Source: Octopus vulgaris (lineage: Eukaryota). From it: 64,000 nucleotides of DNA. The stretch covers positions 45,570,001 through 45,634,000 of the forward strand of contig OX597831.1 in assembly GCA_951406725.2 (NCBI GenBank). Reading direction: 5' to 3'. Positions 3,522 through 64,000 of the stretch are shown piece after piece. A program made the position numbers and the translations under genes. A model generated the notes under the pieces. That model saw only the letters and a list, made by a program, of their open reading frames with translations, was not told the origin of the DNA and did not search any database. The first letter of the stretch is position 1, and the number at the start of each line of letters is the position of its first letter.

Positions 3522-3680
3522 GTGCATTGGCTGTGTGGTAAGTAGCTTTCTTACCAACCACATGGTTCCGGGTTCAGTCCCACTGCATGGCACCTTGAGC
3601 AAGTGTCTTCTACTCTAGCCTCGGGCCAACCTAAGCCTTGTGAGTGGATTTGGTAGACGGAAACTGAAAGAAGCCCGTCG

Positions 3681-3748
<68 letters not shown>

Positions 3749-3962
3749 GGTTTGTGTGTCTGTGTTTGACCCCCCAACATCGCTTGACAAATGATGCTGC
3801 CGTGTTTACGTCCCCGGTCACTTAGCGGTTCGGCAAGAGAGACCGATAGAATAAGTACTAGGCTTACAAAGAATAAGTCCTGGGGTCGATTTGCTCGACT
3901 AAAGGCGGTGCTCCAGCATGGCCGCAGTCAAATGACTGAAACAAATAAAAGAAAAGAAAAGA
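3522..3962 (+). mobile_element. tRNA-derived SINE family A with internal (TG)n
   Basis: A-box-like TGGCTGTGTGGTAAG, B-box-like GGTTCAGTCCC, CORE-like CACCTTG(A/G)GCAAGTG, internal microsatellite and 3' GACTGAAACAA...AAAAGA tail. More than 15 copies in the window. Confidence 0.9.
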
Positions 3963-4139
3963 AAAATATTTTTAACACGTTCCTTTACACTAGAATGTGA
4001 ATGGCATTCGCTGCGGGATTTTTTTTTTCGGAGAACAAATTTCTCCATTTAGAATCGGCTTCAACTGGAAATTAAAACCGCAATCCGTACTTGAAAGAGC
4101 ACGGCACTTATCACGTGGATATTAAATACAGATAGCATT

Positions 4140-8520: not shown

Positions 8521-9277
8521 CTTCCGCTCTGAGACTAAATGGCCAGTTATTTTCGAATCATACATTCGGTCTAAGAGGCCCTTCTCGGCATACGCGGACG
8601 AAGTTAGAGCTCTGTTGTCGAGTAGTACGGATAACTGAGGCGGTAGTAATAATTATGCTAAAGAAATACTGGGTGATATCAGGGTGATTCGGATATGGCT
8701 TGGGCCGAATCTCCAAATAAATAAGAACTGAGATGGGTTTACGAGTAGAGTGGCTTCTCACACTCAAAATTGGGTGAGCGGGAGCTCGTATTAAAATACT
8801 GGGCAGAGGAGGAAAATGCATAATATCGCTTCTATTGCTTTTTATTACCTAACCGTAGTGCGTTGCTCTTCTTTTCATCTGACCAAATTGGTTCATTTGT
8901 TCTTCTGCATCTTGTGGAAAGGAACTCTAATCAACTGTTCTCTATTAAAATTTTGCAATAACTTATCGATACTTCAGAGAGATCTGCCGCCGTTTTTACG
9001 ATTGTCCTGTTTAATTAATTCAATCTCGTTTAAATAATTCACAACGACTAAATTAGTGTATTAATTAAACACGAGTGAATCAGTTAATGAGGACAATCGT
9101 TTTTTTTTTCTCTCTCTTTTTTTTTTATGATTGTCCTGTTTAACTAATTCATTTCCACTTAACTAATTCACCAATTTAGTCGTTGCAGGTTCTCTACTAA
9201 TCGAGAAAAAAGCAATGATTGGTACTTCAGCGCTTGCATTCTATTGAGGGTTAGTAATGACCAAGAATAACGACATA

Positions 9278-9882
9278 AGGTGGCTAGCTGGCAGAATCGT
9301 TAGCACACCGGGAGAAATCCTTAGCGGTATTTCGTCTGCCGTTACGTTCTGAGTTCAAATTCCGCCGAGGTCGACTTTGCCTTTCATCCTTTCGGGGTCG
9401 ATAAATTAAGTACCAGTTACGCACTGGGGTCGATGTAATCGACTTAATACCTATGTCTGTCCTTGTTTGTCCCCTCTGTGTTTAGCCCCTTGTGGGTAAT
9501 AAAGAAATAGGTATTTCGTCTGCCGTTACGTTCTGAGTTCAAATTCCGCCGAGGTCGACTTTACCTTTCATCCTTTCGGGGTCGATAAATTAAGTACCAG
9601 TTACGCACTGGGGTCGATGTAATCGACTTAATACCTATGTCTGTCCTTGTTTGTCCTCTCTGTGTTTAGCCCCTTGTGGGTAGTAAAGAAATAGAAATAG
9701 GTATTTCGTCTGCCGTTACGTTCTGAGTTCAAATTCCGCCGAGGTCGACTTTGCCTTTCATCCTTTCGGGGTCGATAAATTAAGTACCAGTTACGCACTG
9801 GGGTCGTTGTAATCGACTTAATCCCTTTGTTTGTCCTTGTTTGTCCCCTCTATGTTTAGCCCCTTGTGGGCAATAAAGAAAT
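9278..9882 (+). mobile_element. SINE family B, head-to-tail trimer within one 15-bp TSD
   Basis: One full head plus two headless units starting GGTATTTCGTCTGCC. TSD AAGAATAACGACATA at 9263-9277 and 9883-9897. Confidence 0.93.
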
Positions 9883-10469
9883 AAGAATAACGACATATTC
9901 AAGAGCTTCTGGGCATCGACGACAATCAACTAAACAACTTGTGTAGGAACGCTTGCAGCCAGGAGCTTATGGATAATTCCAATAAATCCTTTGTCCGGCA
10001 CTGCTACCGGTAAGCATCACCGGTTCTACAAGTATGGTAGCCCTCTGAGAATCAGACGTGTTCAAGAAGTGTGTAGAACTAGAAAGCCATTCTGTTCGCA
10101 CTCGTTCGCTTATTGAGCATTACTGACTTTTGAAGCCTTGTTGGAATAGCTACTATAGTGTGCAAGACAAACTCGGTGATCACCCAAATTCACGGTGCTG
10201 TCTTCCATTGACAGGCAGTTTTCCTATGACTATGACGAACAAGACTGAAAGTACTTGAGAACAGACACTTTTCTTTTCCGCAAAGCTTACGTCAACTTCT
10301 TCACTTTCCGTTTGGAGAAGAAATGGGAAATAGAATGAGTGATACTTCTCTCCAGTAAATTTTTTGAAACGTGGGTGAGAGTGAGAGTATCGTCCAGAAG
10401 AATTGGTCTATTCTTAACAAGCATCTCTAGGCTAGCGGCTAGCAGTACAGCTTAGGCAAAAAGGTAAGG

Positions 10470-11169: not shown

Positions 11170-11817
11170 TATATCTCCTCATAATTTCAGCAAATTAAGT
11201 AATATATTAACATTTGAAAAGAGACGATGCGAGTATTTTTGAAAATTCTGGTTGTTTCAAACGTTTATTCCTATACTTCGTTGAATTATATTTTTATAAG
11301 CTAGCTAACAAATTTTTATGAAATTAGCTTTGTTCAATTTTAGTTTTTCCGAATCTAAAATTGTTTTTTATTTTCAAATTGACATATTTGAAACAAATCA
11401 TGGCGTCGAATTCTTCGACGAACAACGAGGTAAAAGAAAACGAAATTGTTTATGCAGTTTTCCCGCCGCTGGCTCAACCAGCGCCATCAGTACCACCATT
11501 ACTGTCACAGCCAGTTACAACAACAAAACTAGCAACAGTAACAAGACAAATGAGAAACCTCACCGGAAATAACAAACATGGAAACTACATAAAAATTTTT
11601 AATCGTCCGACCAATACGCCAACATTTTCCACCTCCGCCGCCGCCACCACAACAGGCAACCCACTCGGCACTGCCTTTGCTAATAATGTCCGCCGAATGC
11701 AAAAAGAAATTACTATTCCAGCGGACAAGTTAAAACAGGCAAAACACATGTTGACGAAACAAGGAAGATATAAAGTTAACAATCCTGTTCTCTATCCAAC
11801 AGGAGTCAAACTTCAAG

Positions 11818-12255
11818 ATGATTACTTTCAATTTTTTCAATTCAGTTTTTATTGGCTCAAAAAGCAAAAGCAAGGCCATGTAGGGGGACAGGGAGTTATG
11901 TACAGGGAGGGTGGTCATACAAAGAGTTCAGGCCATTTCTGGTCAAGACAGACTTTGAACCGAGCGGTCGTCGGCATCTTCACTATCTCGTCCGGCAGCT
12001 TATTCCACGGATCTGCAACTCAGACGGAGAAAGCCCCTCTCCTTCGATTGAGATGAAATCGTCGTAGATAGAGCTTTTCGGAGTGACCCCGCAGCCCGCG
12101 ATCTGGAGCAGGAGTGAAGAACAGCTCTTTCGAGAGGTTACACTTTCCGCTTATGATGTTGTGAGCGAGAATGAGATCACCATGGCGTCGTCGTTTTTCG
12201 AGAGAATAAAAAGATCGAGCGTCTTCAGCCTTTCTTCATAAGACAAATGCTTACA
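11818..12255 (-). mobile_element. 5'-truncated CR1-clade LINE 3' end
   Basis: Minus frame reads LSYEERLKTLDL...RRRHGDLILAHNII...LRGHSEKL...FSV*VADPWNKLP...FKVCLD, the CR1/L2-group ORF2 C-terminus. Confidence 0.85.
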
Positions 12256-13188: not shown

Positions 13189-15849
13189 ACACCACCCTCA
13201 TAGAAGCAGCAACACAAAGGAAATCAGGAGCAACATCAACGGCAGAATGAAGCTCTAACAAGATCAGCAACTGCAACGGCAATTTCTGTAGCTAGTAACC
13301 ACCAAAGCAACGGCAACAATGTCGCAAAAACATCAACGTTAGAAGCAACAACAAAAGAAACACTGACCTCAAGAACCAGCATATCACCAATATCATCTAA
13401 GTATTGACGTTGTGGCTATCAGTAAACTCAGACTTTCCGATCTATGAGCCATACTCATTTTTGGTGGGTACCAGATTTACTTATCTCCATGTCAACCGAG
13501 AAAGTGGGGGTAGAACTGCGATATTGTTCCGGAGAAGTCTGGATCTCAAGATAAGAGCCATCTTTCTGGATCCAGAGGGTAAGTTGGTGGTCCTGGATGT
13601 GAGCAGTAGCGACGGGTGTGCTTTCAGATAAATGGCTGTTTATGCACCGAAAGGAACAGGCCAGCAGGGTTTCTTCAGACATCTGGAGGTTTCCTGGGAA
13701 CATCTCAACTTTTTGTACTAGTGAGCAACTGGAACGCCATCTTGGATGCACGTTTAGATTGTGTGGCGGTAGCTGTTAGAAGAGGAGAGTACAAGAGCCT
13801 TGCAAATCTGCTCACAGACTTCCAGCTGTCTGACAAGGTACCGACAGGATATCTTGAATATACCAAACAGATGTGGACGAACCGCATTGGGTCATTTAGG
13901 TTGTATCTAGATAGAGTTTTTGTGGGCCAATAGATAAGGATAGCTTAATTTGTCCATTCTTCAAAATCGCCGGCGACACAGACCTCAAATTTGTGGTCTG
14001 TACGGTCGACCTAGATAGGCTTAGAAGGCAGGGAGTTTGTCACTCCCGATATGCCAAGCTTACAGAGACCAGAGTAACGAATTAGTTCAATGAGTGTTAA
14101 CCGAGTCAATCGTTAAGAATAAATGGTGGTTTGCACTAAAAAGGGCAATTAGAGTAGAATCAATTAGGTTTAGTAAAGCATTAGCGATAGAAAGAAATAG
14201 AATGGAAGGAAACTTAGTTGGGAACTTAGAAAAGGTGCTTAGGAAAGGTATCGTAATCGATGTACACGCAGCAGGATTAACCCTTGACTAATTCTTCAAC
14301 TCTAAACACGAAGGTTGCGTGGTCAGAGTTACAGCAACTGCTCTATGACACGTGGGTACGAAATCCTCTCGATGAGCCCGAGTTTCGGAGGCGCAGCGTG
14401 GCAACAAAGTCACAATACAATCTTTGGTAGACGAAATTGTGTTCATGTTACTCTCCCGAGCAGATGAGTGCGGCGTTTCAGCAATAATTCACTCAACTGT
14501 TTGGGACAAATAGTAGACCAGAACGAAATATGGACTTCAGTGCCTACCTTCGCAGCATGCCTCGAATTTCAGCAAGGGAAGCGAAACGCTGCGAAAAGGT
14601 AATAATAGCCGCAGAAATACTAGATGCAGTGATTAGCTGTATGGTGTTCAAATCGCCTGGTTTGGATGGTCTGCCTTAAAAGCTTTACTTTTATATGACG
14701 GACTTGTTTGGAAGCCACTTAGCAGATAGCTACTGCAACTGGCAGCGGAACAGGAGAATTCTAAGTTATTGGAGTCGAGGAGTGGTGGCACTGCTTGGAA
14801 AGAACCCAAACAAGGAGGATCAAATAGAAAATATTAATCCCATTATTCTACTAAACGCAAATTTCAAAATTTTAGCCATTGCTTCAGCAAAGAGGTTGGC
14901 GCTTGTTGTTGAGGAACTGATTGGTGATGCGTAAACGTGCGCCATCCCAAGTAGATCTATCCATGACAACTTCAACCTTATGCGATACATGAAACACAGG
15001 GTAGCTAAAGAACCTGGCATAGGTGGTGTCTTGATCAATTTGGATCTTAAAAAATCTTTTGATAGGGTCGACCCCCAGTACTTGGCGACCCTTCTCTCGG
15101 CGGCTAGTTTTGATCCCATTTTCCGTGGTTGGATTGCAGCAATGTACAGCAACATATGTTAGGTAGCTCGAGTAAATAATTACCTACAAGAACCATTCAG
15201 CATCATCCGCTCGGTCTGCCAAGTTTGTCTCGTCTTATCTCTTTTGTATGTACTGACTCCAGAGTCACTTCTGGGTAAATTGGAGACGTTGAGAGACATC
15301 CTGTGCGAGCTAGGACGTGGGAGATCTGAATCGATGCGGAGACTGTATCACCGTCATAGTGTCAGACATCAAGCACATAGACCTGATCGGCACTCCACTA
15401 AAAGAATGTGAGGTGGTGACAGAAGCAAGAATTAATCAAGAAAAGTCAATGGGCCTACAGCTCGGGACCTGGAGAGACAGATCCATGCCGTCCAATAACG
15501 TTGTGGAACACTGGGAGGAAGGACGGGCTGTTGTTGTTGTTGTTGTTGTTGTTAAGCAACAAGACGGGTAAGAGTGATTAGGTGATGGTCTAGGGCTTAG
15601 AGGCGGGAGACCCCAGTCCTTGGAAAAAAAAAACTTTGGTCGTCTTGTAGCCGAGGGCTCTTCGTTGACGCCCGACACCACTGGGAGGTGGCCCTCGAAG
15701 TTGCTGGAAATGGAGATCTCCAGGTCCAACTTCTTGAACGGCGGAAGGACGGGCTGAAATGCTTGGGGTTTGGCTTGGTCCAGTTCTCCGGTTGGAGAAG
15801 AACTGGGACGAGATAACGAGCAAGGTGGCTAATCTCAGCAAAAAAGCAT

Positions 15850-18690
15850 TGAAAATATACCCACCACAGTCACAGATATACCTTCAGCATCACCAACTCC
15901 CGAGCACCACAATCGTCAACACATCTATCTCTATCACAATAGATCCCCCAACACTACCACAACTTCCACAACTCAAAAGGAAAACGCTCCTAACAGCAAC
16001 AATCAACTACACAAGCGCAAAAACTTCGTGCGAGAGAGGAGGGCCAACAAAGAATTGATAACTCTCATAGCACGAAAGAAGGACATCGAGAGAAAAGGTG
16101 AGATCTTCGGCACCAGCGCCATTCAAGTGCCAGAAACACAGATGATGGTGCAAAAGCCTCTGGAAACGTATAAAAAGATTAGGGAAAGTTTCCCTCACGA
16201 TGTGGGATTCCCTATAGTAAAAGACACGATTAGGCTTTTAAGGAGGTTCCCAAAAGAACCACAACAAGTTATGGATGTTGAACACTCAGCGACACCCAGT
16301 GAGAAAGTAGACCTCCCCACCCCTTTGTTTCTTCTCCAAACTCTTTCTGGTCATCATAGTGGATTAAAGGATAGTTTGTATAAATATTCGTGTCCTGGGG
16401 TCGCTCTGGAAGCAAGGTCGCCGACTCAACTACATCCAGCTATGGATGTGACGGTCACCAGCGAAAACAGGATTTCCGATACACACGATCTAGGGCCTAT
16501 TTTTGATGATTTTGAGATCTATACATCTCTTAGTCGTCCCGCACGTCATTCTTTCAAAGACCAGGTTAGCAAGTTAGTCCATCGGAAGTTGTCGCGCAGT
16601 CATCAACAACCGATGGTGGATGACCAGGAAAAGGGCTATTAGAATAGATGCAATAGAGTTTAGTAAAGAAATAGTTTCAGAGAAATCTAGGATAGAGGTA
16701 GATTTAGTTAGAAAGCTATAAGAGGCGCTTAAAAGTGCCATAGCGACCGACGAGGTGGCGACCTTGCTTCCAGAGCGACCCCAGGCCACGGAGGTTGCAT
16801 TGTGAGATCTAGGGCACGTGCGCTTAGACACGAGAGAAAGAAAGCCGTTCGATGGACCCGGGTGGCAGAGGTGCATCGTGGCAACAAAGTCACGATTCGG
16901 TCTTTGACGGGACGGGACGGGGGCATGCTACTCGAATCCAAGCAAATAAATGCAGAATTTCAGCGACACTTTGCTGATCTCTCCGAAGCGCGCGTTGAAT
17001 CGGAGATGATGGTGGATTTTTACTTCTTACCTCGATGGCATGTCGCGCCTTTCGGCCAGGGATGCAGAATTCTGCGAAATGCCGATGACAGCTGAAGACA
17101 AACGGGATGCGATGACCAGATGCACAAGGGAGAAGTCTCTGGGGCTGAATAATCTGCTCTTTGAGCTTTATTTTCATATGTCAGTGTCGGATATTTCGGA
17201 AACTGAGTTGATAGGCACTGCCTTAAGGGAGTCCCGGAACGGCGACAAGAACAAAGGTTAACCAGAAGTCAGTGGTCCTGCAGTTCGGCACCTGGAGAGG
17301 TAAGTCCATGCCGCCCAACAGAGTCATAGGGCGCTGGACCGAAGCAAATGTTAAATTGTTAGGGATCTGTTTTGGTCCAGACTTCCAGGTGGACAAGAAC
17401 TGGGGACAGGTGACGAGAAGGTGGCCAATCTCACCCAGAAATGGGCAGAGCGAAAAGTGTCCCTGAAGGGTCGGGCGGAGGTGTAGAATGCGTACATCAC
17501 TCCCGACATTTATTACCGCCTGACAATCATCCCTTGCTCTGCTTTGTGGCTGGAGCGTTTGTTCTGTTTTCTGTTGAAAGGACGTGTTCCGCTCGGCAGA
17601 CGGTCCATCTCCTGCCGTGGATATTGGTTGCGTCGAGACTGTGGCATCACCAGCATTTCCTTGGTGGTGAGCAGCTGTGGTCGCAGGTTTGTCAGACAAG
17701 ATTTTCCGCAGCTCGTCGCATTGACGGAGCGACAGTCCTAGACCAAGCGAATACTGAGAAAGGGCACTTGGCGCCTGAAGTGTCAGTAACGTTCACAGCT
17801 CTCTGTCACTCGGGTAACGAATCAGTGGAAGTTCCACATTGGAGTTATATAGGAGATTAATGGCGGACACGATCGACGACATCGTCGGGGAAACTCTGGG
17901 TGTCGGGAAGGATCAATTAGCTGGTCTTTTTCGGAGGGCTTTCGAGCCAGGGTATACGGATAGTTTCCAGAAATCCCAGACCTGACAGTGTTATCAGGGA
18001 TCTCTCCCGGTTCAAGACAAGCTCGATAGGCTTGTGAGAAGGACATATCCGAGATGTTCGCTTCGCAGGGTGATGAAACCGTTCTGCATACACTCGTCCA
18101 GCGTCATAGCATTGCCGACTTGTGGAGCTCTGTCAAATAGCCGTTTACACGTGTAGGACTGGTCCAGTTATCAGCCGAATCCATCGTAAGGAATGCCCCG
18201 CCGCCTTCTTTTGGCCGAGAAGGGAAGGTAGTTTTCCTCTGTCTGGTGGCTATGGCGAAAGGGGGAGTGTGATAGGTGAGGTTGAAAGAACTGAAAACAA
18301 ATACTTTCAGCTTCGATCAAGCTCTCATCAACTTTTTCAAGATCCACTTGAAAAAAGAAAGTGAGGGTGGAGAAGGAAGTGCTTCCATCCTGTGTTTTTT
18401 TGTTGAAAGGTGCGTGAATATAGAAACGATGGCCTGTAGGCCGGAGAGAAGAGAGAGGAGAGGGGTCTCCGCCCGAGGTGTCTGTGGCGTTCGGGATGTC
18501 CGTGATGTGTGGGGTTCCTTGGTCGCCCCTGGCTGGAGCTTCCTGCTTTTGGGGAATTTTATTATTCGAATTGTTATTGTCAATTGTTATTGATTTTACT
18601 CCTTACACGCACTATATATAAATCCCCACTTTCTTTTGAGTTGAATCGGCCTTTGTTTCTGTGTGCGGCCCCTGTAGCCAATAAAGAGAG
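15850..18690 (+). mobile_element. Second decayed, internally deleted Tx1/L1-clade LINE with 3' UTR
   Basis: GCIVRSRARALR...GNKVTIRSL, EKSLGLNNLLFELY and LQFGTWRGKSMP parallel the first copy and the 62861 frame. The 3' end GTGTGCGGCCCCTGTAGCCAATAAAGA resembles 62805-62836. Confidence 0.85.
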
Positions 18691-18716: not shown

Positions 18717-18860
18717 AGGTGGCGAGCTGGCAGAATCGTGGTGGCGGAAGTGGGGTAGCAAAATGGTTAACGCATCGGGCAAAACGCCTACAGATATTTC
18801 TTCCGATTCATTACGTTCTGAGTTCAAATTTTGCCGGGATCAACTTAACCTTTCATCCTC
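18717..18860 (+). mobile_element. SINE family B, diverged partial copy
   Basis: GGCGAGCTGGCAGAATCG head and TTACGTTCTGAGTTCAAAT. Confidence 0.75.
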
Positions 18861-19294
18861 TCACCCTCAAACCTAGTGGCTTTGTGCCAAAATTGTTATT
18901 ATTTGCTTTCGCGCAATCTTTGTTTCCGTTTCTGACTGATGACATTTATTTGTGTTGAAACAAATATGTATTTATTTACTCGTGGCATATCCTATTCACC
19001 ACAACTTTTCCCTATGTATATGCGTCCATTTCTAAAATGGCATGGTAAGTTATGAAGGCAATTTAGCTGCAAATTATAACAGGATACTCAACAATGTAGC
19101 GATTCGTTGGTTAGTTCATATTGTATACAAAAGCAACAGTTATACTTTTCCGAATAGTGTACAATAAGGATTCATTCTCTCACACCCCTCTTTTCAACTA
19201 ATGCCTACCCAATTTACCCCCACAACACAAGCAGATGACATCACACTCATATCATCTCACTAATATTGAAATGCAGCTACACAACTGCCCCAAT

Positions 19295-30005: not shown

Positions 30006-31516
<1,511 letters not shown>

Positions 31517-31904: not shown

Positions 31905-32180
31905 GGAGTTCTGCACAGTTTTAACGATTGCCAACCAAAATTCCATTCACAAGATATCGCCGAACGATGCTTCGATAAGAGCAGCCTTTTTAGGTTTACT
32001 GTAAAGGCTTGTGTGCCCTGGCAAACTCAAGGTGTCCTGAGTGTCACACCCTCTATCTATGCCATTATATAATATATCGGGTGTGGCATGTGTATTTATC
32101 AATTATCAAAAAGATTTAGGTATTGGTTAATGAAAACTTTGAGGTTGACTTATATTCATTGACAATATTTAACACATATG

Positions 32181-32740
32181 GGGCGGCGAGTTGACAGAAT
32201 TGTTAGCACGCCGGGCGAAATACTTAGCGGTATTTCGTCTGCCGTTACGTTCTGAGTTCAATTTCCGCCGAGGTCGATTTTGCCTTTCATCCTTTCGGGG
32301 TCAATAAATTAAGTACCAGTTACGCACTGGGGTCGATATAATCGACTTAATCCGTTTGTATGTCTTTGTTTGTCCTCTCTGTGTTTAGCCCCATGGGGGT
32401 AGTAAAGAAATAGGTATTTCGTCTGCCGCTACGTTCTGAGTTCAAATTCTGCCGAGGTCGACTTTGCGTTTCATCCTTTCTGGGTCAATAAATTAAGTAC
32501 CAGTTACGCACTGGGGTCGATATAATCGACTTAATCCGTTTGTCTGTCCTTGTTTATCCCCTCTGTGTTTAGCTCCTTGTGGGCAGTAAAGAAATAGGTA
32601 TTTCATATGCTGTTACGTTCAAATTTCGCCGAGGTTGACTTTGTCTTTCATCTTTCGGGTCGATGTAATCGATTTAATCCCTTTGTTTGTCCTTGTTTGT
32701 CCCCTCTATGTTTAGACCCCTATGGACAATAAATAAATAA
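32181..32740 (+). mobile_element. SINE family B trimer
   Basis: Full head plus two headless units joined by AAAGAAATAGGTATTTC at about 32404 and 32588. Confidence 0.9.
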
Positions 32741-32759
32741 ATATTTAACACATATTTGC

Positions 32760-34571: not shown

Positions 34572-34796
34572 TCATTATTATTATTACTTTCATTATTACT
34601 AAGGCGGTGAGCTGGCAGAACCGGTTAGTATGCCGGACAAAACGCTTAGCGGCATTTCGCCCGTCCTTACGTTCTGAATTCAAATTCCTCCGAGGTCGAC
34701 TTTGCCTTTCATCTTTTCCGGGCCGATAAATTAAGTTCCAGTGAAATAATGGGGTCGATGCAACCGACTAGTCCCCTCCCTCAGAAGGGATCATTA

Positions 34797-35297: not shown

Positions 35298-35642
35298 GAC
35301 GGGCTTCCACACAACACAGTTCCCGTCTACCGAATCCATTTACATGGCATTGGTTCGGACTGGAGATATAGAAGACTAAACCCGAAACAGCGTGGTTGCA
35401 AAGGGAGCATCTTAATCACACAGCCGGGTCTGCGTGTACCTGCTTGCGTTGGTAAGCCGGTGTGGGTTGAAGTGAAGAGCGCTGTTGTGTATTCACAGTA
35501 GTTTGTCGCGGAGGGATCTCAACTCAGGTATTTTCTGACGGTATAACTATACCTTAGCTAGTGTAATGTACAATGGTCAGAAATTACAAAAATAAGAATT
35601 AACGAAGACTCTTGCCTCTCACAGTATAGAAACATTTTTCAT

Positions 35643-35874
35643 GGCGGCGAGCTGGCAGAAACGTTAGCACGCCGGGCGAAATGCTTAGCAGTATTTCGTC
35701 TGCCGTTACGTTCTGAGTTCAAAATTCCGCCGAGGTCGACTTTGCCTTTCATCCTTTCGGGGTCGATAAATTAAGTACCAGTTACGCACTGGGGTCGATG
35801 TAATCGACTTAATCCCTTTGTCTGTCCTTGTTTGTCCCCTCTATGCTTAGCCCCTTGTAGGCAATAAAGAAATG
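35643..35874 (+). mobile_element. SINE family B monomer with 15-bp TSD
   Basis: TSD AGAAACATTTTTCAT at 35628-35642 and 35875-35889. Confidence 0.93.
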
Positions 35875-35904
35875 AGAAACATTTTTCATGGCAACAACAG
35901 ACAA

Positions 35905-45342: not shown

Positions 45343-46779
<1,437 letters not shown>

Positions 46780-51830: not shown

Positions 51831-51837
51831 TTGTCAA

Positions 51838-52275
51838 CTGGGACTTATTTTATCGACCCCGAAAGGATGAAAGGTAACGTTGACCACGGCGGAATTTCAA
51901 CTCAGATCGTAGCGGCGGGGGAAATACCTATTTCTTTATTACCCACAAGGGGCTAAGCATAGAGGAGACAAACAAGGACAGACAAACGGATTAAGTCGAT
52001 TATATCGACCCCGAAAGGATGAAAGGCAAAGTCGACCTCGGCGGAATTTGAACTCAGAACGTAGCGGCAGACGAAATACCTATTTCCTTACTACCCAACA
52101 GAGGCTAAACACAGAGAGGACAAACAAGGACAGACAAACGGATTAAGTCGATTACATCGACCCCAGGATGAAAAGCAAAGTCGACCTTGGCGGAATTTGA
52201 ACTCAGAACGTAACGGCAGACGAAATACCGCTAAGCATTTCGCCCGGCGTGCTAACGATTCTGCCAGCTCACCAC
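51838..52275 (-). mobile_element. SINE family B trimer (third unit truncated)
   Basis: Junction GAAATACCTATTTC, the reverse complement of the B junction, at about 51921 and 52073. Confidence 0.88.
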
Positions 52276-52506
52276 CTCTGATAAGTAATGCTGACAGATT
52301 TTGTTCTGACCCCGTCATACTACTAAATGTTTTGTCATCAGTCTTCAGAAGCGACTGACCCGCTGAGAGGTCGCTGACGGGGTCACTGCCTTTTCAAATA
52401 ACACAAGACGGATTAACATATTTTCCCTTTCTCAAATATACATTGGCAATGTAAATGATCAAGCATGTGTGAATGTATTTGGGTAAAGTCTTTCCCTGTG
52501 TACAAC

Positions 52507-62103: not shown

Positions 62104-62132
62104 ATCTTTCTATCTATCTATCTTTCTTTCTT

Positions 62133-62362
62133 ATTTCTTTATAACCCACAAGGGGCTAAACATAGAGGGGAGAAACAAGGACAGACAAACGGATTAAGTC
62201 GATTACATCGACCTCAGTGCGTAACTGCTACTTAATTTATCGACCCCGAAAGGATGAAAGGCAAAGTCGACCTCGGCGGAATTTGAACTCGGAACATAAC
62301 GGCAGTCGAAATATCGCTAAGCATTTCTCCCGGCGCGCTAACGCTTCTGCCAGCTCGCCGCC
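62133..62362 (-). mobile_element. SINE family B monomer in (CTAT)n
   Basis: Reverse complement of the 35643 copy. Confidence 0.9.
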
Positions 62363-62364
62363 TT

Positions 62365-62539: not shown

Positions 62540-62838
62540 ATTGACCGAGGTTACCGTGGTCTTTTCCGTAGGCTTTTCTTTCCACGGGTAAACCTCACCT
62601 GTCCTCCTCTTTACACTTCATATTGACATTTCTGTGATAACGATCCCTATTGATCAATTTTTTTTCCTTTCCCCTTTTTTTTTAATTTTATCCCCCCCTT
62701 TTTTGTCCTCTTTCTTTCCTTTTACGATCCCTTTTGATCGAAAACCAAACCGCCTTTTTTTTTTTACCCCCAAAAGAAAAGCTCTACCTTGTAATTTGTC
62801 CTGTCTGTGTGCAGCCCTGTGTTGCTAATAAAGAAACA
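62540..62838 (+). mobile_element. Tx1-type 3' UTR fragment
   Basis: Ends CTGTGTGCAGCCCTGTGTTGCTAATAAAGAAA, similar to the 3' end at 18660-18688. Confidence 0.6.
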
Positions 62839-62860: not shown

Positions 62861-64000
62861 TCTAACAAATGGTGGTTTGCCCTCAAGAGAGCAGTAAAAG
62901 CAGAAGCGATTAGGTACAGCAAAGCACTAGCCATAGATAGAAATAGAGTAGAGGGTGAGCTAGTTAAGAAGCTAGAAGAGGCAATTAGAAGCGGCATCGC
63001 ATCCGACGTTTTGGCGGCGAGGTTGGCCCTCGACCAACACTTCAACGCCAAACACGAAGGATGTGCTGTCAGAGCTAGGATGCGTGCTCTAAGGAACGAA
63101 GGTGTTGGAGCCGCGAGAGAGGCCCGGGTGGCAGAGGCGCAACAGGGCAACAAAGCCACCATTCGGTCACTGGTAGATGAACAGGGGCGCGAATTGCTCG
63201 AGCCAAGTAAAATGTGTGAAGCCTTTCAGCAGCATTTTGCCCGACTGTTCGGAACGAGTGGAGGGCAAGAACGTAGGGTGGACTTCAGTGCCTACCTACA
63301 TAGCCTACCACGACTCTCGACAAGAAAGGCAGGGTGCTGCGAAGGTGCCATCACGGCGGCGGAAGTGCGGGAAGCGATGGCAGAATGCTCGAGGGACAAA
63401 TCACCGGGTTTGGATGGTCTACCCTACGAGCTTTACAATTGTATGCCAGACTTGTTTGGAGATCTCTTGGCGGCGGTGTACTGCAACTGGCAGCAAAACG
63501 GGAGCATTCCTGGTTTTGTGAGCCGAGGAGCCGTAACACTGCTGAAGAAAGATCTAAACAAGGGAAATGTAATAGATAACTTTAGGCCCATCACTCTGCT
63601 TAATGCAGACTTGAAAATTTTGGCCAAGGTGCTAGCCAAGAGGTTGGCGCTTGTCATCGAGAAACTGGTCGACAAGGCGCAAACATGCGCCGTGCCAGGC
63701 CGGACCATCCATGACAACCTCCATCTGATGCGCTACATCATAGACAGGGTAGTTAACGAACCTGGCATGGGTGGGGCCCTGATCAACTTGGATCAATCGA
63801 AAGCCTTTGATAGGGTAGACCATCGATACTTGGGGGCAGTCCTGAGAGCGGCTGGTTTCGGTCCCGTTTTCCGCGGATGGATAGCTGCTTTGTACAGAGG
63901 CATCCGTTCGGTAATTCGCGTAAATGGACATCTATCGAGACCTTTCAACATTGCACGTTCGGTCCGTCAGGGATGCCCCCTCTCGGCGCTTCTATACGTA
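62861..64000 (+). CDS. Young 5'-truncated Tx1/L1-clade ORF2 (linker + reverse transcriptase), open to the window edge
   Basis: 380 uninterrupted codons by manual translation: NKWWFALK...KSPGLDGLPYELY...FRPITLLNADLKILAK...LDQSKAFDRVDH...SVRQGCPLSALLYV. Confidence 0.93.

Follow-up and report, generated by a model that had tools for sequence, protein, structure and literature searches.

Headless tandem units of a SINE from Octopus vulgaris are joined at the edge of a predicted head hairpin

A SINE present in a 64-kb stretch of Octopus vulgaris DNA (contig OX597831.1, positions 45,570,001 to 45,634,000, referred to below as the window) forms multimers at three loci, T1, T2 and T3, in which a head-bearing unit comes first and is followed by two units starting at unit position 49. 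All six junctions read GAAATA followed by GGTATTTC, and re-entry takes place at position 49, the base that immediately follows a predicted UAGC hairpin loop on its 3' side. Bivalves and squamates are known to have tandem SINEs whose heads are truncated at a single point; the octopus loci are a cephalopod variant with the junction at the hairpin edge. The explanation that we favor, and to which we give about an even chance, is that the junction goes back to one old fusion (or a few) and has been passed on among multimers that retrotranspose as complete chains and swap units by homology.

The loci were delineated by searching the window with the first unit. The unit of the SINE measures 232 bp and its positions 49-232 reappear as headless repeats of 184 bp (Table 1). 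A preliminary description of this DNA had placed three trimers, each with a head unit and two headless ones, at 9278, 32181 and 51838. This architecture stands, with the correction that T3 is an incomplete trimer: its third unit ends near position 142, the 3' end being lost, and stretches are deleted from within its units 1 and 2. A single fixed junction at the six joins had also been proposed, and the junction 14-mer GAAATAGGTATTTC is indeed present six times in the window (at 9504, 9694, 32407 and 32591 on the plus strand and at 52073 and 51921 on the minus strand) versus 0.001 expected by composition, the second junction of T1 displaying one additional GAAATA. These 14-mers are copies of one repeat and do not imply independent events. 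The enclosure of T1 in a single 15-bp TSD was likewise recovered, and T2 was found to have a perfect 16-bp TSD of its own (32164-32179 and 32740-32755), absent from the preliminary description; a TSD was looked for at the T3 locus and none was found. The multimers of the window have three units per locus (the end of T3 is missing), and a single TSD is observed in two of the three, an arrangement that expansion in place would produce as well. T1 holds no ORF of at least 120 aa. Three different deletions (32597-32739, 52081-52229 and 51929-52080) lie between two GGGGTCGAT repeats within the unit and show homology-driven, repeat-mediated slippage in this SINE family.

Table 1. Coordinates of the SINE loci and of the LINE-like piece in the window
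Feature	Coordinates	Strand	Remarks
T1 left TSD, 15 bp	9263..9277	+	identical to 9883-9897
T1 head, unit positions 1-48	9278..9325	+	5/47 differences vs other heads; hairpin weakened
T1 A-box-like motif	9289-9299	+	motif match in head
T1 unit 1 body and tail, positions 49-232	9326..9509	+	unit self-search
T1 B-box-like motif	9351-9362	+	motif match, unit 1 body
T1 unit 2, headless	9510..9699	+	AGTAAA-type tail; extra GAAATA ahead of junction 2
T1 unit 3, headless, terminal	9700..9883	+	tail monomer-type: A201, C220, AATAAA
T1 right TSD	9883..9897	+	identical to left copy
T2 trimer with 16-bp TSD	32164..32755	+	perfect repeat
T2 head and unit 1	32181-32412	+	
T2 unit 2	32413-32596	+	
T2 decayed terminal unit	32597-32739	+	
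T3 whole	51836..52277	-	no TSD
T3 head and unit 1	52277-52081	-	
T3 head hairpin	52217..52246	-	predicted: intact 13-pair stem, UAGC loop, -15.3 kcal/mol
T3 unit 2	52080-51929	-	
T3 third unit	51928-51836	-	truncated; sister-family states
Monomer M1	35642-35874	+	with 15-bp TSD, 35628..35889
Monomer M2	62132..62363	-	inside GATA/AAAG microsatellite
Sister copy	34602-34780	+	
Sister copy	40120-39900	-	
Sister copy	18717-18875	+	
Sister copy	28620-28500	-	
Sister copy	39630-39500	-	
Probable LINE 3'UTR end matching SINE tail	62786..62837	+	alignment; ends AATAAAGAAAC; then (TATC)n

The head carries an A-box-like motif and the body a B-box-like one, according to what we take to be the A/B-box consensus, and the headless units retain the B box only. 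No parent tRNA for the head was returned by ARAGORN (0) or by Rfam (0 at E<=10). TSDs surround T1 (15 bp), T2 (16 bp) and M1 (15 bp). Runs of four T are absent from T1, M1 and M2 and occur once each in T2 and T3, so that a chain could be transcribed from its single head. The last 47 nt of the SINE tail match 62786-62837 with an alignment score of 56, compared with 35 for the best of 2000 shuffles. This piece adjoins a (TATC)n tract followed by an open reverse-transcriptase frame of 379 aa at 62864-64000 (+), which matches Pfam RVT_1 (E 3e-18) and scores better as LINE-1 ORF2p (E 1e-27) than as R2 (E 2e-13); to judge from these matches, it is an L1-clade ORF2 fragment. The best named relative of a LINE protein in the window comes from Argonauta hians (56% identity). 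The candidate partner of the SINE is probably a LINE of the L1/Tx1 clade, the putative 3'UTR piece lying next to the ORF2 fragment, and such a partner would fit TSDs of 15-16 bp. The L1-clade element at 62864-64000, which starts in the (TATC)n tract, is possibly a microsatellite-targeting partner LINE. A decayed relative of this fragment is seen at 14118-15177.

Five loci of the window are of the 232-bp-unit type (T1-T3, M1 and M2), and seven more matches are partial or belong to sister families. These sister SINEs display the same head and central body with at least two other tails, mostly with ATT-type repeat ends, and such different tails on a common head and body appear to result from tail swapping inside one SINE lineage. 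One sister copy (18717-18770, +) has two head starts in succession, the first of ~23 bp and the second diverged. Public contigs matching the unit (9270-9509) numbered 97,725 and 536,434 in two sets, figures that include sister families and are not copy numbers; by these matches the SINE family is very abundant. A family-specific 26-nt pattern gave 0 matches in metagenome, viral and prokaryote collections. A central-domain pattern gave 0 in viral contigs and retrieved 121 metagenome loci (L001-L121), which were rejected as members of the same family, having only ~40 bp in common with the unit and belonging to the abundant tRNA-like SINE of another animal. An exact motif of 25 nt in this central region is common to both and can be considered a conserved SINE domain because it is also found in these 121 loci of an unrelated tRNA-like SINE. 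No headless tandem was found among the 121, and a self-repeat lies nearby in 1/121 (51 bp, 84%).

The junction was followed in public contigs using one unit (9270-9509, with the diverged T1 head) as reference and two contig sets, X3 and X9, coded as different organisms. Neither RNA ends nor circles are visible in contigs, one of the two sets is labeled as RNA by guess, and depth does not equal copy number. Seven of the 15 joints listed (there are at least 531 others) connect the tail end at 9506-9509 to 9326-9329, in at least 172 contigs of X3 and 68 or more of X9, and three of the 15 connect the tail end to 9342-9347. The tail-to-9326 junction is the best-supported joint among those listed; a joint from tail to head start is not present among the 15, the diverged reference head lowering sensitivity. 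The loose sequence ahead of 9326 has the consensus ...GGGTAGTAAAGAAATA in 544 contigs of X9 (agreement 0.84) and 1336 of X3 (0.63), and deviates from the reference, which reads AATAAA (A at the site). The majority tail variant before the junction in contigs is AGTAAA, which is absent from all four terminal or monomer tails in the window. The joints and this consensus together indicate a family-wide junction tied to one tail variant. Joints from 9444/9446 to 9342 (33 contigs, X3) were considered as sister-family multimers and rejected, the intervening sequence being unknown; the head-to-tail depth ratio was rejected as a unit count, as it depends on contig depth and a diverged reference head. 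A C at position 49 accounts for 14-20% of depth, and the junction with C49 has a depth of 386 versus 1006 in X9, unphased; the C49 reads are probably a head variant, and the C49 junction hints at a second origin. The two most distinctive bases of the T1 head are rare in contigs, where the common base makes up 81-97%; because this haplotype is rare, the T1 head does not qualify as a prolific master. In raw reads, 19 of 12,895,792 from run X22 matched the unit, one of them spanning the junction, too few to inform on depth or ends, and run X17 gave 3 records.

Eleven phased units were available for comparison, ten of which were used in trees, the third unit of T3 (T3u3; other units are designated likewise) being excluded as it has no tail. 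The ten-unit tree resolves only T1u1+T1u2 (93/93), the internal/terminal split appearing in only 10% of bootstrap trees, and a tail-only tree groups T1u3+T2u3 (88/77). Seven AU tests were performed on groups named after the first tree, and single-test p values are given. A T2 clade (0.010), T1u2+T1u3 (0.003), all first units (0.032) and all second units (0.022) were rejected; a T1 clade (0.098), T2u2+T2u3 (0.109) and terminal units plus monomers (0.306) were not rejected. All four gametes are found in 23/66 informative site pairs, a pattern that recurrent mutation can also give. The closest pair is T1u1 and T1u2, which differ at 3/184 sites (102, 196 and 222); since all three sites vary in other units, these differences probably predate the insertion. 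The two internal units of T2 differ at 14/184. Units within one locus have variants in common, and so do units of different loci: T2u2 and T3u2 both show C65 and A158, and the terminal units of T1 and T2 agree at five sites. The last-unit variants CCCTTTG, CTCTATG and CAATAAA pointed out in the preliminary description are indeed common to these two terminal units, with T180 as one further shared site. T3u2 has a partly monomer-like tail immediately ahead of the junction. In T3u3, C58 and C60 agree with two sister copies, while its A129 and G142 are those of a third, and sister-family states lie 9-11 nt past its junction. On the sequences compared, the units are mosaics, and trees ordered strictly by locus or strictly by position, the two outcomes envisaged beforehand, both fail to fit them; only T1u1+T1u2 and the terminal tails group.

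The tails themselves carry the main evidence for an inherited junction, because the AGTAAA variant is linked to that junction. G201 is present in 5/6 internal tails versus 0/4 terminal or monomer tails (p 0.024, non-independent) and G222 in 4/6 versus 0/4 (p 0.07). The LINE-like piece at 62786-62837 reads G201, T220 and A222, which suggests that those states are ancestral and that AGTAAA may have arisen in the junction lineage. The caveat of the preliminary description, descent from one old multimeric master, is strengthened as regards an inherited junction, the AGTAAA tail being tied to the junction in hundreds of contigs; strict clustering by position is rejected (p-AU 0.03 and 0.02), which makes a fixed trimer master too simple.

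Units of one locus are also of unequal age. The three bodies of T1 have 0, 0 and 1 private substitutions of 184, versus 5/47 differences in the head (p 1e-5), and the boundary between the two ages lies at most ~30 nt from the junction site. T2 displays 6, 5 and 14 private substitutions, with 14/143 in the terminal unit versus 11/368 in the internal ones (p 0.003); its head has 4/47 and does not differ significantly from the internal units (p 0.08). T3 displays 6, 1 and 9, with 9/82 in the terminal unit versus 7/301 (p 0.002). The head differences may be subfamily variants. These contrasts point to exchange with boundaries near position 49, which fit homologous exchange with junction-bearing donors, the homology ending there, and fit RNAs beginning there equally. 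Mosaic units of unequal age are poorly accounted for by a single rolling circle as well as by a fixed trimeric master.

In the inheritance scenario that we favor, a founding fusion guided by the hairpin and the tail complement would have created the tail-to-49 junction once or a few times. The whole chain would be transcribed by Pol III from its single head, and an L1/Tx1-clade reverse transcriptase would bring about its insertion in one piece on recognizing the last tail. Later changes, in which units of 184 bp are added, removed or exchanged, could come from unequal crossover, from gene conversion or from template switches guided by homology while the RNA is reverse-transcribed. Because headless units have no homology upstream of position 49, such exchange would always remake the same junction and would need no new RNA cleavage. 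The loss of AATAAA from most internal tails may favor read-through of internal ends. The main evidence against inheritance is provided by T1, where an old head precedes young bodies within a perfect TSD, together with the sister-like T3u3.

The structural claims of the preliminary description were evaluated by folding prediction. Re-entry at a hairpin loop had been proposed; the junction lies exactly at the loop edge, and folding of the initial 97 nt is more stable than that of shuffled sequences in T2 (z -3.5), T3 (z -3.2) and M1 (z -2.5), but not in T1 (z -0.5), M2 (z +0.3) or a sister copy. Whole-unit folding was not better than shuffles either (z -0.4 and -0.2). The hexamer TATTTC, complement of the tail GAAATA, does occur once per unit and beside the junction as claimed, with a chance of ~0.004 (+-3 window, post hoc). 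Docking of the tail by replacement of a stem strand found no support: in full-length units the predicted probability of pairing between tail and head-stem site was 0.0 in 3/3, the head stem being paired at 1.0 in both full units with an intact head, and predicted docking in headless units (n=4) was 0.02, 0.03, 0.22-0.23 and 0.99, that is, weak in three of four. The hairpin-edge junction and the adjacent tail complement make it plausible that the original fusion was structure-guided, and a single founding event suffices for the tail-complement coincidence. Any guidance by the hairpin and the GAAATA/TATTTC complement was probably limited to the founding fusion.

A serious if unlikely competitor assumes that SINE RNAs cut at the loop (or stalled there during reverse transcription) and starting at position 49 are joined to tails afresh at each insertion. 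Joining would be achieved through RNA ligation by a host ligase or through end-to-end jumps of an L1-clade reverse transcriptase, the head coming from another transcript, a route that we consider doubtful. The head hairpin would then act as a programmed break point giving ribozyme-free concatemers from several transcripts, even of sister families, which is rather improbable. Such repeated joining would explain a re-entry point placed precisely on the loop edge and next to the tail complement, the unequal unit ages within all three loci, the perfect TSD of T1 despite its diverged head, the sister-like T3u3 with the hint given by the C49 junction, and the rejection of T2 as a clade. It leaves unexplained why tails ahead of junctions have a majority variant of their own when terminal tails are monomer-like. 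Pol III transcripts should extend beyond the tail to a T-run, and a precise GAAAUA 3' end would therefore require extra processing. In addition, a cDNA end cannot anneal to an acceptor tail of the same sense, and the predicted docking is weak. A precedent for repeated joining is nevertheless available, as RtcB-ligated U6/L1 chimeric RNAs are reported to retrotranspose (PMC6789731) and L1 chimeras to contain tRNA halves (bioRxiv 10.1101/2025.02.02.635956).

It is also improbable, in our estimation, that gene conversion or gap repair from junction-bearing donors added headless units to monomers already in place. TSD, head and terminal tail would then stem from the original monomer, and whole-chain retrotransposition would be unnecessary, a simplification to which we likewise give a low probability. 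The monomer-type terminal tails agree with such an expansion in place, as do the older-looking head and terminal unit of T2 and the older, sister-like terminal unit of T3. T1 does not, since its last unit has hardly changed (1/184) and a perfect TSD goes together with a diverged head; the T2 argument is itself reduced by the non-significant contrast between head and internal units and by head differences that are maybe subfamily variants.

Circle amplification, put forward in the preliminary description, found little support. Rolling-circle reverse transcription of a ribozyme-free circular RNA of ~184 nt would account for a unit that is a clean circular permutation with a fixed closure point, and for the closeness of T1u1 and T1u2, as from a circle entered via a linear RNA. 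We consider it very improbable, as the sister relationship of T1u2 and T1u3 is rejected, the few differences between T1u1 and T1u2 fall at sites variable elsewhere and the T2 internal units are too unlike. The predicted circular fold is 5-6 kcal/mol less stable than the linear one, with docking below 0.02 in 3/4 units. No hammerhead or HDV-like core was found in the units (Rfam 0 hits, no exact CUGANGA core on either strand); CUGANGA with 1 mismatch has one site per unit, on the minus strand. Least credible of all is a fixed trimeric master without later exchange, which would give three units at all three loci and the sites common to the T1 and T2 terminal units and to T2u2 and T3u2, but is opposed by the rejected unit-1 and unit-2 clades, by variants common to units within a locus, by the sister-like T3u3 and by T3 itself, which lacks its end and need not have been a trimer.

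The octopus SINEs OK, OR1 and OR2 were reportedly described by Ohshima and Okada in 1994, and the present family is similarly a SINE of the octopus group with a tRNA-like head; OR1 and OR2 are cited as CORE-SINEs. The closest known arrangement is that of the blood clam S. broughtonii, where TSD1-(SINE)n-TSD1 arrays reach up to 15 units and ~3% of SINE copies lie in tandem or palindromic structures (PMC11481361). As far as the accessible account goes, both cases involve a mollusc tRNA-related SINE with a full head first, the same later head truncation and one TSD pair. The first and internal units of the clam are 3'-truncated, whereas octopus internal tails run to GAAATA like the terminal ones, and the octopus junction lies at a hairpin loop edge, whereas the accessible clam account reports no junction structure. 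Squamate SINE-derived satellites (sSat) comprise up to 1000 units with a subtelomeric lean, a rare variant has both SINE termini, and unit number varies at orthologous loci in snakes (PMC10702118). They resemble the octopus loci in that a portion of a SINE is tandemly repeated and the terminal unit is longer; in contrast, the octopus multimers are short, interspersed and TSD-flanked, with three units per locus in the window. Bivalve and squamate tandem SINEs are attributed to unequal recombination.

Complex SINEs such as Alu or the Dip/B1 multimers of jerboa (PMC3531059) are comparable in that several units are probably transcribed and inserted together. They are built from complete or nearly complete monomers, whereas the units added in octopus are mosaic and devoid of the A-box half of the head; unlike a complex SINE ordered by position, octopus first and second units do not form clades and only two terminal tails group. 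Metazoan non-LTR retrozymes, which share short tandem units with the octopus loci, are summarized as having hammerhead ribozymes, abundant circRNA and a Penelope-like link (PMC7761336; bioRxiv 10.64898/2026.07.22.740005). They differ from the octopus SINE, in which no ribozyme was found and whose features include a head of Pol III type, a tail resembling that of a LINE, and TSDs. No cephalopod description of such a multimer was found in the literature searched, most subscription papers and repeat databases being outside its scope.

With a dominant junction on a hairpin loop edge, in an abundant family with loci of mixed age, inherited multimers, conversion in place and RNA-level joining are directly separable in a public assembly, and a SINE could be observed in the course of becoming a tandem repeat. 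If joining is recurrent, a structured SINE RNA would steer its own assembly into chimeras with no ribozyme involved; if the junction is inherited, the matter is mainly one of repeat annotation, as libraries of monomer consensus sequences miscount multimer loci.

Several other features were observed in the window. A second repeat family, more abundant and ~445 bp long, contains a dinucleotide microsatellite and is found at ~3528-3972 and in ~13 other places. Open frames of 242 and 269 aa at 11328-12056 (+) and 15833-16642 (+) have no Pfam match. A short open frame at 30139-30402 (+), located between (AAT)n tracts, received no supporting match from Pfam and is presumably similar to the C terminus of a non-LTR element of R4/Dong type. 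Finally, an open frame of 351 aa at 45539-46594 (-) contains Mos1-type HTH and mariner transposase domains.
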